Source: Escherichia phage HMD-9. From it: a stretch of DNA of 64,000 nt. A model generated the notes under the pieces. That model had not been told where the DNA came from and did no database searches. It saw only the letters and a program-made list of their open reading frames with translations. Of this stretch, positions 1 through 63,827 are shown piece by piece (position 1 is the first letter of the stretch; the number at the start of each line of letters is the position of its first letter). Both the position numbers and the translations under genes were made by a program. The stretch lies in sequence record PV287714.1. One strand, written 5' to 3'.

Positions 1-2004
1 CGTCCAGATGTCATGACCGATGGTATCTTTTCCACCGTTGAAATATACACCCTGTAATGAACTAACCATATTAGCGAGTCGTGTATATTCTTCAGAAACT
101 TCATCTACACTGAAGTACTTCATCATAAAATCTAACTCAGGATACTTGATAATTTTATCAATATATCGTTTAGCTGAACTTGAATAACCTACATACTTAT
201 CATAATCTACATCATCAAAAGCATCTACATATAAATCACGCAAAGTTTCAAAAATACATTGACACTGACCAAGTTCTTTTACCTTTTTCTGTAAAAGTGG
301 ACGAATAACATAAAATTCATTAATGCCAATAAGATTAGCCATACGAATCAAAATATTCGTAGATGGATGACAAAGCGATGTAGTACCATCCATAGAGAAA
401 ATATCAGAACGATGCATGTATGCTACATAACCAGTAATTTCATCTGCTTCTGACGTAAGTGTAAACAACTCCTCTTTTTCCCAGCGCCCGTCTTTAATTT
501 CAAACTTAAATGCAGTAGCAGTTTTAGGACGAGGAGCTGTACTTTTTACTACCTTTGGAATATAACTTTTAACTAAAGCTTCAATTTCTGACAAATAATG
601 AATGTTAACTTCATCACTTTCAAACATTGCCATAATATCAGGAAGCAAATCAATCTGCGATTCTACTTCCGGATTAATAAACAGAAGCCGCTCATTGTGA
701 TGAATATTTAAGGTGTTATTAAATTCGCTATCATCTAATGCACGTGCTAATCCACGAACAATATTAACACGATTTTTAATATTATCAATAACAATATTAA
801 TTTTTGTCGTATTAATACCAAACAGACGATAGCTTGACGCAACGGCTGAAGTTTCATGGCTTTGCTTAATGCGTTTCAGTCGAGGGTCAAGATTTACTTC
901 ATACACAACCCCTGCATTGCATAACTTACTGTCAGGTTCAAACATGCTTTGCATCTTTTTATATGACAGATTTTTAGTCGTGAATTTGACCGAATTACTA
1001 ATCATATAATCTCGAGCAGAATATCCCATCTTCATCAATTCACGGTATGTATGACGAGGAGATGTAGATTCTTTAAATCGTTTTACATCTTCATTAAATG
1101 CCTTTTCACTGAGCTCTTTAACACGCTCAATAATATTTTTACGAGTACGATCATCTAGTGAAAGAGCTTCGCGTGATGGAGCAATATCAAGTGAACCCAT
1201 TGGAAACTTAATGTAATTCACTTCATTGCGAATGCTTAACCAGTTACGGTCTCTAATAACACCATCGATAGGATAAACAATACCGCCATAGATAGCGTAC
1301 AATCCACCACGATCTGGCCAGTATCTTTCTGGATTTACACCGTAATAGTCATCAAAATCCGGAAAATAATCAATTTCGCGGTCAAGACCATTAATGATAG
1401 CCAAATCTTTGAATGGTCGCATGATATAAGAAACTTCATAAGCAAAGTTTCTAAAGTCTTTTTCTTCAACTGGAACTACGATTTCAATACCAGTTTTATC
1501 ATCTGGACCCATTTCTTTTACGAATGTAGGTTTAATCTGCGGACCATCACCATCCATGTAAGCTACATAACCGCGAATTTCACCTTTATGATATGAAGTA
1601 ATACTAAATGTATCAGTATAACTAAACGGAGATTTAGAACCTAAACCAAATCCACCAATAAAATCGTTAGATTCAGCCTTAGATGAACTAAAGTATGAAT
1701 TATACAACCCAGGAGAATTATCATCACCCTGAATATCAAAATCGCTCATACCTGGACCAAAATCTCGACAAACAAATCGCGGATCTAATCGTCCTGGAAC
1801 TTGAATGATAAATTTTTCAGGATTTCCATTAAGAGCATGGGCATCAATCATGTTGGTAATCAATTCACGGACTACTGCGCGAATCTTGTTTGTATACAAA
1901 TCAGATGACAGAATTTTAAATACTTTAGGAGACGCTGTGATGCTAAATGCTTTTGATTTAGAACCATTACCAAGAATTGTTTCTTTTTCAGTGGTGATAA
2001 TCAT
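1..2004 (-). CDS. rIIA: rIIA protein, partial (N-terminal 668 codons; 3' end lies beyond window start)
   Basis: Uninterrupted minus-strand frame from ATG at 2002-2004 ([14 protein letters not shown]...) to position 1; GAGGAAA SD upstream; recognised as T-even rIIA from memory. Confidence 0.85.
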
Positions 2005-60908: not shown

Positions 60909-61234
60909 TTAGAAAATAAATTTATCCAAGATTGCTCTTTAATTAAAAATGGCTCAGAATCATATGCCATTAAACTTTGGGTAATTAGTCCTTTAAAAGG
61001 CCCATCAATAAATTCCATGGTAAAATATGGAATTTTATTCATTAATCTTGCATTAGGAGCAGTGCACAAAACTCTGCATCCTTTGAATACGCCTTTTTGT
61101 AATTTGTATTGCTTAGGATAAAATTCGCTCAAGACGTTGTTATTTGCCAAAATTTCAAAATGATTCACCAATTTATTTTTAATAGTTTTTGGCGAAAAAT
61201 AAAGATATTCGAAAAGTTGCGTGTCTGTCATCAT
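60905..61234 (-). CDS. hypothetical protein
   Basis: Track ORF trimmed to ATG overlapping upstream stop (ATGATGA); 109 aa. Confidence 0.45.
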
Positions 61235-61806
61235 TGCATTCCGATTACGAAAAACTGCGGACGAGTAATACCACCAATGCAACAATTACTATTGCAACAG
61301 TGGTGCACAGTTTCAATATGAATATCGTAAATTTTATCCATATCAGGAGATTTAACAGGCTCATCAATTATATACAAAATCCGCGAAAGCGATAAACCTC
61401 TGAACTTGCTACCTCTATTACCAACAAAACTACGGACAGAATCAGTAAATAAACGGAATCGAATATCATCGCCAGAATAACGAGAAAATTCTTTTTTAAT
61501 GTGGCCCGCAGAAATTTTAGCATAAGATGAAGTATTAGAAAGAACAATAACCGTTCCGCCGTCATACAACCAATTAACAGCAAAATTAGTTACTGCAGTC
61601 GATTTACCTGATTGTCTGCCACCATCTAAACGAAGTGTACAGTACTGCTTGAGTACGTCTTCAAATGGTGGGGCATAACCGTTCTTACAAATTTCTTCTA
61701 CTCTAGCATCAGAATGGTGTGTAAAAGCATTCATCAGGGATAGATAAGGTCCAGTTAAAAATGTTCTCATATTATTTCTCTTAAGGTTTGGACCATTCCG
61801 TGGCAC
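61231..61806 (-). CDS. small P-loop NTPase-like protein
   Basis: 191-aa track ORF (GTG start in track); Walker A-like GGRQSGKST and Walker B-like LYIIDE. Confidence 0.45.
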   Translation of the reverse strand: MPRNGPNLKRNNMRTFLTGPYLSLMNAFTHHSDARVEEICKNGYAPPFEDVLKQYCTLRLDGGRQSGKSTAVTNFAVNWLYDGGTVIVLSNTSSYAKISAGHIKKEFSRYSGDDIRFRLFTDSVRSFVGNRGSKFRGLSLSRILYIIDEPVKSPDMDKIYDIHIETVHHCCNSNCCIGGITRPQFFVIGMQ

Positions 61807-61948
61807 ATGAATTGTCCATTTCTGTATTTACCCATTACCGCACTTGGGCTCGACCTTATTACAGGTTGGCGGGAATCCCTCATAGAATCATGAGGTCCAG
61901 GTTGTTCCCATGTTATTTGAATGTAAATAGGCCTAAATATAGGCCTTA

Positions 61949-62545
61949 TTAATTACCACGGGCTGCATTAGCAACGGCATAAGCGTACTGAACATTAGCG
62001 TCTTTAAACATACCTTTAGAGGTGTCTATTTCTGCCTTAAAGCCGCCTTTAGCCATAACATCGGCAAATTCTTTACGGAAAGCCATTGCATCAAGACCTT
62101 TCCATGATGATTTGTGCTTGGCGAATTCAAGACCAGCGTAGTTGACAGCCTTAGCTAATTTATTATCAATAACCCATTTACCAGCTTTAGGCACAAACAC
62201 AGGACCTTTCTGTTTAGAGAACAGTTTTAAATTCCAGCGACGAAGGTCAAAGTCAGCTTTAACAAAAGCTGCGTCCAAGTTACTAGCAACAACATCTTCA
62301 ATATGAGCAAATTTAAGTCCGTCAACTTCAATATTTAGGTCGGTACGCCAGCGAAGTCCTTTCCAGGCGAAAGCTTTAAAGTCGGAAGCCTTTGTAGCTA
62401 AATACCGTTCAATAGGAGCTGTTTTAGCGTCAAAACCATTTCCTGGGTTGTCAACGCCGTTTCCTCGGTAAGTCCACTCATCTTTATTAATGCCTTGGAC
62501 CTTTCCTACAGAAGCTTCGGCGATAAATTCTTTATATGTTTTCAT
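61949..62545 (-). CDS. internal protein (IPIII-like) with capsid targeting sequence
   Basis: 198-aa track ORF; N-terminal MKTYKEFIAE CTS; basic, Lys/Ala-rich body. Confidence 0.7.
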   Translation of the reverse strand: MKTYKEFIAEASVGKVQGINKDEWTYRGNGVDNPGNGFDAKTAPIERYLATKASDFKAFAWKGLRWRTDLNIEVDGLKFAHIEDVVASNLDAAFVKADFDLRRWNLKLFSKQKGPVFVPKAGKWVIDNKLAKAVNYAGLEFAKHKSSWKGLDAMAFRKEFADVMAKGGFKAEIDTSKGMFKDANVQYAYAVANAARGN

Positions 62546-62598
62546 ACGGATTCCTTAAAGGTAAATATTTTAATTGGTATGTTCAAGTAACTGTAGAT

Positions 62599-62627
62599 AT
62601 ACTATCACAATTCTAGGAGATGTAAAC
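62599..62627 (-). promoter_or_regulatory. T4-type early promoter for IPIII-like gene
   Basis: Reverse complement GTTTACatctcctagaattgtgaTAGTAT. Confidence 0.5.
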
Positions 62628-63026
62628 TTATTTGTAGGTTTTCATCCAATTCTTGAACAAAGCCACGACGTCTTTCTCTTTAACGTTCAGTTTAACGTCC
62701 AACATTTTACCACCAGCTGCTCTCGTTTGGCGAATCTTAGCAGTACCGGTTTCGCCATTCCACTCAACATAATATTGTCCAGCGTTCATTGCAATACCAT
62801 CGCCGTAGTCTTCATTTTTAGAAGTGGTGAAGGCCAGCTTCATAGTCTTAGAGACACGAGCCTGCATGCCTGTCTGAAGGGCATTACGAACGCGAATAAC
62901 CTGAGGAGTGGCCTGGGTCAGGTTCTCATTCAGTTCTTCAGTGAACTCTTCAGATTCAAACATAGCCAAAAGTTCTTTAGATGCAGGAATTACATTCTCT
63001 GCGATAAATTCTTGATACGTTTTCAT
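62628..63026 (-). CDS. internal-protein-like protein with capsid targeting sequence
   Basis: 132-aa track ORF; N-terminal MKTYQEFIAE CTS. Confidence 0.6.
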   Translation of the reverse strand: MKTYQEFIAENVIPASKELLAMFESEEFTEELNENLTQATPQVIRVRNALQTGMQARVSKTMKLAFTTSKNEDYGDGIAMNAGQYYVEWNGETGTAKIRQTRAAGGKMLDVKLNVKEKDVVALFKNWMKTYK

Positions 63027-63056
63027 TTTTGTTTCCTTGTTTGTTTTGATAGAGTA

Positions 63057-63086
63057 ATTATACCATAATAATACTTAAGCGTAAAC
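63057..63086 (-). promoter_or_regulatory. T4-type early promoter
   Basis: Reverse complement GTTTACgcttaagtattattatggTATAAT. Confidence 0.55.
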
Positions 63087-63089
63087 TGT

Positions 63090-63350
63090 TTAAGCTTTAC
63101 CGCCAGAAATAATTCCGAAGTTGTTAAAATCATATCCAATATCGTCAACATCTACTTTAGGGCTTGCTACAACATAAGCAATTTCACTACGTTTTGCATA
63201 GGTGTTTATTTCTCTACCATCGCCGCCTAGGAAAGAATACCCATTACGTTTTAATGAGCCAAAGTCTTCCGCATCACCAATGAAAGCTTTAACTTTAAAT
63301 TTAGGACCTTTGGCATCTGCTTCAGCGATAAATTCTTGATACATTTTCAT
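63090..63350 (-). CDS. internal-protein-like protein with capsid targeting sequence
   Basis: 86-aa track ORF; N-terminal MKMYQEFIAE CTS. Confidence 0.6.
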   Translation of the reverse strand: MKMYQEFIAEADAKGPKFKVKAFIGDAEDFGSLKRNGYSFLGGDGREINTYAKRSEIAYVVASPKVDVDDIGYDFNNFGIISGGKA

Positions 63351-63356
63351 TTTTCC

Positions 63357-63770
63357 TTAGTAAATTGATTTACCATAGTATTTGTACCAAGTAGGACGTT
63401 GAGCAATTTTTTCGTCTAAGCGTGCTTGACTTATCGCAATGGACGCTTCGGACGGGACATAATTATTACGAAATTCGGCAGGGATGTCAGAAATATCCTG
63501 AACAGTCGTGTCCTTGATTTTGAAACCACGTTTCAAGCATTCAGCGATTAGCTCGATTTGACGTAAACGTAAAAATTCGAGTTTGTCGTAAAAGAATGTT
63601 ACGTGTCCTGTGCCTAAGATAAATGTTGGAGAGATTTTAAAATCCTTTACGCGTTTACCGTTTTTAACATGTTTACGGACTGCACCAAATACGCGTGGTA
63701 ATTCACGATACTCAGCCATAAGATGTTGGTCGGTCAGTTCAGAAACAAGTGTTAAATTGATACGAGTCAT
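63357..63770 (-). CDS. denV: endonuclease V (pyrimidine dimer DNA glycosylase) DenV
   Basis: Track ORF trimmed to [12 protein letters not shown]; about 90 percent identical to T4 endo V from memory. Confidence 0.93.
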
Positions 63771-63780
63771 AATTTCCTCC

Positions 63781-63827
63781 AAGTAGTTGATGAATGTATA
63801 GTATCAAAACCCTTGGAGGAAGTAAAC
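63781..63827 (-). promoter_or_regulatory. early promoter with PeSL-like leader upstream of denV
   Basis: Reverse complement GTTTACttcctccaagggttttgaTACTAT followed by leader catcaactactt. Confidence 0.55.

Follow-up and report, generated by a model that had tools for sequence, protein, structure and literature searches.

A conserved pseudoknotted RNA element ahead of vs.8 in T4-like phages and in the tRNA arrays of other phages

The gap between the internal-protein genes and vs.8

The stretch of DNA analyzed here (the window, 64,000 nucleotides of Escherichia phage HMD-9, sequence record PV287714.1) belongs to a T4-like (Tequatrovirus-type) phage, and all genes around the gap considered below are carried by its minus strand. 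Read on that strand, denV (63357-63782) is followed by three internal-protein-like (IP-like) genes (63090-63350, 62628-63026, and 61949-62545, the last of which is IPIII-like) and, beyond the gap, by a homologue of vs.8 (61231-61770), which encodes 179 aa from an ATG at 61770, preceded by the Shine-Dalgarno sequence AAGAGA (61782-61777). The three IP-like genes (61949-63350) have a common N-terminus, MKTY(K/Q)EFIAE or MKMYQEFIAE. Here, they separate denV from vs.8 and from the RNA element that occupies most of the gap. In T4, by contrast, denV directly adjoins the element, and ipII/ipIII are found on the opposite side of it. The left-hand neighbor of the element is variable, i.e., denV in T4 and JS09 and IP-like genes in this phage, and synteny within the variable internal-protein region breaks at the left edge of the element.

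The boundaries of the gap depend on the start of vs.8. The first-pass annotation had this P-loop gene begin at 61806, which would confine the gap to 61807-61948. However, vs.8 homologues all begin with MRTFLTGPYL, corresponding to the ATG at 61770 of the window with AAGAGA ahead of it. The GTG at 61806 is thus an extension, the 191-aa open reading frame (ORF) that starts from it is too long, and the true gap comprises 61771-61948. A similar extension is part of the T4 reference: the annotated start of T4 vs.8 (NP_049732.1; NC_000866 64253-64912) lies inside the RNA element, with 40 extra N-terminal codons drawn across it. Since the vs.8 frame is open back through the core of the element in only 3 of 55 T4-like loci, the extension annotated in T4 is probably spurious. 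The vs.8 protein belongs to PHROG 1488 and is weakly similar to the terminase ATPase; comparison with Pfam (at the family cut-offs), NCBIfam, and PDB sequences gave no match. Its AlphaFold2 model (pLDDT 80.7) retrieves generic RecA-like helicase/terminase matches only (TM 0.35-0.5). The product is a stand-alone RecA-like P-loop NTPase with weak terminase/helicase similarity.

The segment had been described as unusually GC-rich for this genome, and its composition agrees with this description: the 142 nt have 41.5% G+C compared to 34.5% in the window, a value reached by only 6.6% of 142-nt windows. The conserved element itself has 49% G+C, and its core has 51% (top 1.1% of 49-nt windows). Likewise, no convincing ORF is present, as stops occur in the frames and the vs.8 frame is rarely kept through the core, and a promoter scan found no sigma-70-like site within 61771-61948, in line with the reported absence of a promoter. 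The assumption of one structured segment, however, held only in part: the structure is real, but two separate features had been merged, and the 3' third of the conserved element, which extends to about 61790 and thus beyond the 61807-61948 box, had been cut off.

The first of these two features is the palindromic hairpin noticed early on, AGGCCT-aaat-AGGCCT at 61929-61946, which is located directly 3' of the IPIII-like stop and reads on the minus strand as AGGCCU-AUAU-UUAGGCCU, followed by AUUUACAUUC. Its stem has 7 bp, including 4 GC, and the tail AUUUACAUUC is a weak U-tract. A terminator scan calls the hairpin terminator-like on both strands; the scan is not above shuffles, with 2 terminator-like sites in the 3 kb covered versus 2.2 expected, so that a single match is weak. 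The hairpin is confined to close relatives (such as locus L006) and absent from T4. Its appearance is that of a weak terminator or of a 3'-end stabilizer, and it belongs to the 3' end of the IPIII-like gene, outside the conserved RNA element.

The second feature is the RNA element. Single-sequence structure prediction did not set the gap apart: with z-scores of -1.27 (minus strand) and -1.22 (plus strand), folding is not above chance. Because it is no better than for shuffled sequences, the complementarity in the gap could be accidental if judged from the window alone. The proof of structure offered by the alignments is comparative, not thermodynamic.

A conserved pseudoknotted RNA fold on the minus strand

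As delimited by BLAST, alignments, and a covariance model, the whole T4-type structured RNA ("type A") spans 61790-61909 on the minus strand (~120 nt) and consists, in this order, of a 5' stem-loop, a three-way junction, a pseudoknot tail, and a 3' hairpin. The 5' stem-loop (61871-61909) is composed of an outer stem, in which GGGAA (61909-61905) pairs with UUCCC (61875-61871), an internal loop, CAACCUGGA (61904-61896), and an inner hairpin, in which CCUCAU (61895-61890) and AUGAGG (61883-61878) enclose the loop GAUUCU (61889-61884). It is this stem-loop that had been recognized as nested gggaa...ttccc and cctcat/atgagg complementarity. A stem-loop precedes the junction in every lineage; in the VR5-like locus L007 the outer stem carries the compensatory change GGGAG/CUCCC, and the length of the loop varies in L007 and L016.

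The three-way-junction core (49 nt, 61826-61874), defined by covariance model R1 and by covariation, begins with a closing stem (G61870:U61830, C61869:G61831, C61868:G61832, and A61867:U61834, with G61833 bulged), from which hairpin A (61866-61853, ACCU-GUAAUA-AGGU), the linker CGA (61852-61850), hairpin B (61849-61840), and the junction strand GGUAA (61839-61835) follow. In the consensus of alignment A2 (see below), the bulged G after the first pair of the closing stem is nearly invariant, hairpin A reads ACCU-GURANA-AGGU, the linker CNA, hairpin B G-Y-N, loop, N-R-C, and the junction strand GGUAA. The pseudoknot would connect CUG (61898-61900), in the internal loop of the 5' stem-loop, to CAG (61822-61824), in the tail after the junction. 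In type A elements, this pairing comprises 3-4 bp only and is invariant; in the window it comprises 3 bp and rests on homology with a second T4-like type, "type B," which occurs in Mosigvirus, Gelderlandvirus, Jiaodavirus, Tegunavirus, and others. Finally, a 3' hairpin region, GGAC...AUGUGCCACGGAAUGGUCC (61817-61790), is specific to the T4-likes, present in every T4-like locus, and ends 8 nt ahead of the vs.8 Shine-Dalgarno sequence. Its candidate pairing folds at -7.1 kcal/mol and shows one compensatory change (GCCG/CGGC in phage S16). The Shine-Dalgarno sequence itself is not part of any conserved helix in the T4-like alignments. The nested fold is only moderately stable in the window, at -14.4 kcal/mol compared to an MFE of -30.1 kcal/mol.

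The evidence for this fold comes from about 150 loci, retrieved by pattern scans of viral, genome, and metagenome collections. Two alignments were used: A2, with 48 distinct core sequences, and A3, with 27 distinct sequences covering stem-loop, junction, and tail. As the retrieval pattern fixed hairpin A and GGUAA, the invariance of these parts is partly by construction, while the other columns are informative. The three inner pairs of the closing stem are paired in all 48 sequences of A2, through AU/UA/CG/UG, CG/GC/UA/AU/GU, and CG/GC/AU, respectively, and hairpin B has a covarying pair (CG in 39, UA in 5, GC in 2, and AU in 1). The covariation score of A2 is 0.320, as opposed to 0.083 for column shuffles (0 of 500 reach the observed value) and 0.033-0.085 when the partners are slid by 1-3 columns; an earlier alignment of 40 sequences gave the same picture. 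RNAalifold independently predicts hairpins A and B from A2, but not the short, bulged closing stem. Hairpin A, too, varies in copies found with the model: GCCU/AGGC in L034 and L065, and ACCA-GUAA-UGGU in L123. In type B elements, the outer stem is AAAGG/CCUUU, with one pair that varies (GC 17, CG 9, AU 1).

The pseudoknot is supported in the same way. In the type B phages of A3, its three central pairs are 100% paired, through 2-4 pair types each (CG/UA, CG/AU/UA/GC, and GC/CG), and the whole structure scores 0.237 versus 0.061 for shuffles and at most 0.052 for slid controls. By eye, the loop-to-tail pairing is also apparent as CCAG/CUGG versus GAGG/CCUC among rV5-likes, as CGGA/UCCG in phAPEC8-likes, in the loci L046, L099, and L049, and, with 5 bp (CCGAA/UUCGG), in a copy on a Pseudomonas megaplasmid. 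Several positions of the fold have G-U pairs, which would turn into A-C mismatches if the complementary strand were folded; hence, it is the transcribed minus strand that is functional. Model R1 matches the window once in 64 kb, at 61874-61826 (67.9 bits, E = 5e-24). Among the 150 fetched loci, 109 matches reach at least 42 bits, and the scores are clearly bimodal: below the gap lie one diverged second copy (30.6 bits) and pattern-only chance matches (at most 26 bits). Taken together, comparison across relatives brought out four covarying helices including the pseudoknot, with copies in unrelated phage families, and in this comparative sense it is shown that the minus strand encodes a conserved RNA fold with a pseudoknot. 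Of the roles initially considered for the segment, that of a small RNA is thereby strongly supported, as far as a structured RNA is concerned, by the covariation, the G-U wobbles, and the cross-family copies.

Distribution in phage genomes and tRNA arrays

A BLAST search with the segment matched 1029 phage records. T4 is matched in a single place, 64815-64938, between denV and vs.8. The T4-like genomes, about 1000 in number, invariably have the element at the head of vs.8 or its operon; in Jiaodavirus, vs.8 is set apart from the element by an inserted IP-like gene. The element remains directly 5' of vs.8 across T4-like genera, although the vs.8 proteins are only 33-40% identical. The central 32 nt are the same in the window and in Klebsiella phage KPV15, the vs.8 protein of which is only 38% identical. 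Type B elements differ from type A by indels and are devoid of the ATG at which vs.8 of T4 is annotated to start. The 3' hairpin extension is conserved only where vs.8 follows, i.e., in the T4-likes. Some T4-like loci contain a tandem, diverged second unit of stem-loop and junction (L034 5092-5138, L040 9134-9180, L143 476-522, and, after 274-322, L039); these tandem copies score 42-50 bits with R1.

Outside the T4-likes, the 40-nt core recurs with 92-95% identity. The rV5-like phages (Vequintavirinae) have it shortly before the tRNA cluster, and in PsgM04F, a phAPEC8-like phage, it is flanked by two tRNA genes; both times, it is on the tRNA strand. Indeed, in most non-T4 loci (rV5-like, phAPEC8-like, and uncultured phages) the motif adjoins tRNA genes on the same strand, and in five lineages (L099, L150, L046, L140, and L120) it follows a tRNA at a distance of only 29-51 nt. 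Intrinsic terminators are located 3' of the motif in L046 and L049, and in rV5 an annotated near-consensus promoter lies between the motif and the next ORF. Within the phage collection, vs.8 homologues occur in T4-like (Straboviridae) records only, and none was found near the motif in non-T4-like families.

The arrays have further content. In phAPEC8-like arrays (L025 8560-8860, minus strand; L037, L042, L045, and L003), the motif sits on a long stalk, AGUGCUCUUAUCGUUGUGAC ... GUCACAAC..GGUAAGAGCAU, and neighboring units have the same stalk with different cargo sequences. The stalk is conserved, but without covariation, and could possibly be a processing site. In the uncultured phage contigs L083 (140-171, plus strand) and L123 (about 220-251, plus strand), a tRNA array includes a genuine abiF RNA (RF03085, 45 bits against a cut-off of 37), and a diverged motif copy is located ~15 nt away from it. 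A similar abiF-like piece is present in the T4-like Acinetobacter phage Acj61 (GU911519 77202-77235) and in Roseobacter phage CRP-143. Such phage-borne abiF-like RNAs may be mimics of the RNA of the AbiF system. An rV5-like contig (L048 3115-3418, plus strand) carries a group I intron (RF00028, 81 bits) ~3 kb downstream of the motif.

Bacterial genomes yielded little. A search of 5,426 E. coli genomes with the segment came back empty at E up to 10, as did a scan of GTDB genomes for the exact pattern. A looser pattern, which still fixes hairpin A and GGUAA, gave 13 matches, and only the Pseudomonas megaplasmid copy among them is real. Neither the E. coli genomes nor the pattern-based GTDB scans produced a bacterial, defense-linked counterpart of the motif. 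The sole copy found on a bacterial replicon (L065 4522-4572) is that of the 949-kb plasmid pPLMAXa of Pseudomonas sp. PLMAX (NZ_CP064950). It has the full architecture, is identical in the soil contig L082, and is surrounded by unannotated phage-like ORFs; an HNH endonuclease gene is close by, and the nearest 8 kb contain no tRNA. An apparent occurrence in Campylobacter phages was discarded: L151 (MG065662, "Campylobacter phage A142") is an UNVERIFIED record classified as Vequintavirus.

Possible functions and likeness to known RNAs

Known RNA families did not account for the element. A scan of the 64-kb window against Rfam 15 (4227 models, including riboswitches, ribozymes, pRNA, YrlA, ROOL, GOLLD, and abiF) gave no match at the gathering score, only junk matches were obtained around the element at E up to 10, and the motif in 8 other loci matched nothing at E up to 1. 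ARAGORN detected 0 tRNA genes in the window, and no tRNA-clan model matched 61500-62300 at E up to 10. The literal sequence is absent from about 8 million papers, and targeted literature searches retrieved no description either; the element may be among the 10,006 candidate viral RNAs of one catalogue. Judging from these sequence comparisons, the element appears to be a new RNA family, absent from Rfam.

The function we favor, with about an even chance of being correct, is that of a free-standing RNA module with one conserved partner, released by tRNA-type processing. This reading is preferred because the motif behaves like an independent gene in tRNA operons and its junction is nearly constant across distant phages. 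The RNA would accordingly be a folded module of its own with a single, highly conserved binding partner, which could be a protein or a small molecule. Its source in the rV5-like, phAPEC8-like, and uncultured phages would be the tRNA operons, in which tRNA-processing RNases and terminators would set its ends and leave a stable small RNA. In the T4-likes, it would be transcribed with the IP/denV-to-vs.8 message and then either be excised from it or function in situ as the first part of the vs.8 operon. A role as a processing site, one of the options named in the first-pass annotation, is possible, since many copies lie 29-51 nt after a tRNA.

For the T4-likes, the position at the head of vs.8 and the additional 3' hairpin fit a cis-acting leader at least as well. 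The main rival is hence that the element is a leader of the vs.8 operon, acting as a riboswitch or as a protein-binding operator, in which the junction and pseudoknot would be the sensor and the 3' hairpin before the vs.8 ribosome-binding site the output. The placement directly 5' of vs.8 across T4-like genera with strongly diverged vs.8 proteins argues for a leader, as does the 3' extension, which is conserved only where vs.8 follows. Moreover, conserved junctions, covarying stems, and a pseudoknot are aptamer-like and would suit a sensor, and tandem copies are also seen with some riboswitches. However, the copies in tRNA arrays of other phages have no ORF to control: the motif can directly follow a tRNA and precede a terminator, and in rV5 it is located upstream of the annotated promoter of the next gene. 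In the T4-likes themselves, the vs.8 Shine-Dalgarno sequence is outside any conserved pairing, and the IP-like gene of Jiaodavirus separates the element from vs.8. A cis-acting leader is therefore a possibility to be taken seriously, but on balance an improbable one.

A more speculative and rather doubtful suggestion is that the element represents a new class of phage decoy or sensor RNA, the invariant junction of which might capture a conserved host factor. This factor could be a defense effector, the protein that binds the effector's RNA partner, or an immune or metabolic signal, and phages would then keep the RNA, within tRNA arrays or in front of the vs operon, as a piece of counter-defense equipment. 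The vs operon of T4 contains the anti-CBASS gene vs.4. The only hint in this direction is the co-location of the motif with a genuine abiF RNA in uncultured phages.

An element that cuts polycistronic transcripts, either as a self-cleaving ribozyme or as a recognition module for an RNase, might separate the tRNAs of an array from each other, and vs.8 from the IP/denV message in the T4-likes. A compact pseudoknotted fold, conserved junction nucleotides, and the proximity to tRNAs in phages would be in accordance with this idea; hammerhead and HDV-like theta ribozymes are both known to adjoin tRNAs in phages. Nevertheless, no Rfam ribozyme family matched at E up to 10, and a conserved candidate cleavage dinucleotide was not found. 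Upon inspection, the junction strands (0 nt, CNA, and GGUAA) fit neither the hammerhead core, which has CUGANGA, GAAA, and UH and gave no Rfam match, nor the strand order of HDV. In the HDV-like fold, the 3' strand of P1 (~6-7 nt) runs between P3 and P4, and the catalytic C resides in J4/2, whereas in A2 only CNA (3 nt) separates the hairpins and GGUAA contains no C. Cleavage of this kind is thus unlikely. Distinctly unlikely, too, is a structural barrier that protects vs.8 or the upstream message against RNases without a specific partner. The location at an mRNA junction and the hairpin directly before the ribosome-binding site would be suitable for a barrier, and the ring-like topology of junction and pseudoknot would be expected to resist exonucleases. 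Such a barrier would not need a near-identical junction sequence across unrelated phage families, though, and the nested fold in the window is only moderately stable, far from the MFE.

It is very improbable that the element acts at the level of DNA, i.e., as a recombination module bordering on the hypervariable internal-protein region, comparable to the promoter-stem-loop (PeSL) cassettes of T4-type phages. A recombination hotspot had been among the first suggestions, and one observation behind it stands: the element and vs.8 are constant, but the left-hand gene changes from phage to phage. Recombination would fit as a by-product only, and a role of the DNA leaves the compensatory changes unexplained: together with the strand-specific G-U pairs, they imply selection on a folded single strand. 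In a PeSL cassette, a stem-loop is coupled to an early promoter (GTTTAC ... TATAAT); this early promoter is absent, no promoter-like site being present in 61771-61948, and the element also occurs in the tRNA arrays of unrelated genomes. A protein-coding origin of the conservation, be it as the vs.8 N-terminal extension annotated in T4 or as a small ORF, can practically be dismissed: the T4 start codon does lie inside the element and window ORFs of 38 aa (minus strand) and 54 aa (plus strand) run across the region, but the vs.8 frame is open in so few loci, type B elements have indels and no T4-like ATG, and the substitutions preserve pairs rather than codons. A small peptide was considered separately and rejected; the core frame shows synonymous-looking CCN changes, but has no start codon and a stop upstream.

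Although T4 is among the best-studied viruses, the element seems to have been overlooked until now, likely because the vs.8 reading frame of the reference is drawn across it. The near-identical junction spans Straboviridae, Vequintavirinae, phAPEC8-likes, uncultured environmental phages, and a Pseudomonas megaplasmid, and such constancy, combined with the complexity of the fold, points to a specific and widely conserved molecular partner. This partner could reveal a new class of riboswitch or ribozyme, an RNA-protein machine, or an RNA-based counter-defense. More immediately, the covariance model is ready for annotating about a thousand phage genomes, the start of vs.8 is corrected, and the view that RNAs other than tRNAs are carried as cargo in phage tRNA arrays gains further support.

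Several resemblances to parts of the translation apparatus were followed up and rejected. The longest words in common with E. coli 16S rRNA are GUAACAAGGU (1497-1506) and CGCGGUAAU (526-534, in the 530 loop), and 15% of shuffles reach at least 10 nt. Both words (A2 columns 13-22 and 33-41) correspond to universally conserved 16S segments near the decoding center, and their identity is treated as coincidence. The likeness of the hairpin A loop to the GUAAUA loop of 23S H44 is no better than that of shuffles. Mimicry of the tRNA-Tyr anticodon loop (CUGUAAA) was discarded as well, because the third base of the loop is not constant (GUGAAA, GUAACA) and both the C and the U are engaged in base pairs.

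Among known phage RNAs, the T4 species 1 and 2 RNAs (rnaC and rnaD), along with other small stable RNAs from phage tRNA operons, resemble the motif in that they are phage-encoded, non-coding, and associated with tRNA genes on the same strand. However, rnaC and rnaD reside in the tRNA cluster, whereas the T4-like element, a putative stable RNA, is ~6 kb away inside an mRNA leader; the sequences are unrelated, and the sole BLAST match in T4 is not the rnaC/rnaD locus. The pRNA of phi29 is likewise a phage RNA built around a three-way junction, and the T4-like motif adjoins the gene for a small ATPase that is weakly terminase-like, but no Rfam pRNA match was obtained, and vs.8 is absent from the other motif-bearing phage families. 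Packaging in T4 is not known to need an RNA. ROOL and GOLLD are orphan structured RNAs, which are frequent in phages and often located beside tRNA genes (PMC12286853). They differ in size, with 500-800 nt compared to ~100-130 nt, and form homo-oligomers; the element matches neither of them in Rfam.

A structural parallel is found in riboswitch aptamers, which share a length of ~100 nt, a conserved junction, covarying stems, and a pseudoknot with the element, as well as the 5'-leader position in T4-likes and the occurrence in tandem. The aptamers of the THF-I and glutamine (glnA) RNAs combine a three-way junction with a pseudoknot. The pattern of the element is thus aptamer-like, including the covarying stems, and a ligand would be putative. 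In contrast to riboswitches, the element has no Rfam match, no recognizable expression platform, and many copies without a downstream ORF, and its position in a 5' leader is restricted to the T4-likes instead of being consistent. Neither the window nor the type B elements match the abiF RNA (RF03085), the partner of AbiF in abortive infection, which is nevertheless found in the same tRNA arrays as the motif in uncultured phage contigs. This shared location indicates that tRNA arrays can carry defense-related RNAs.
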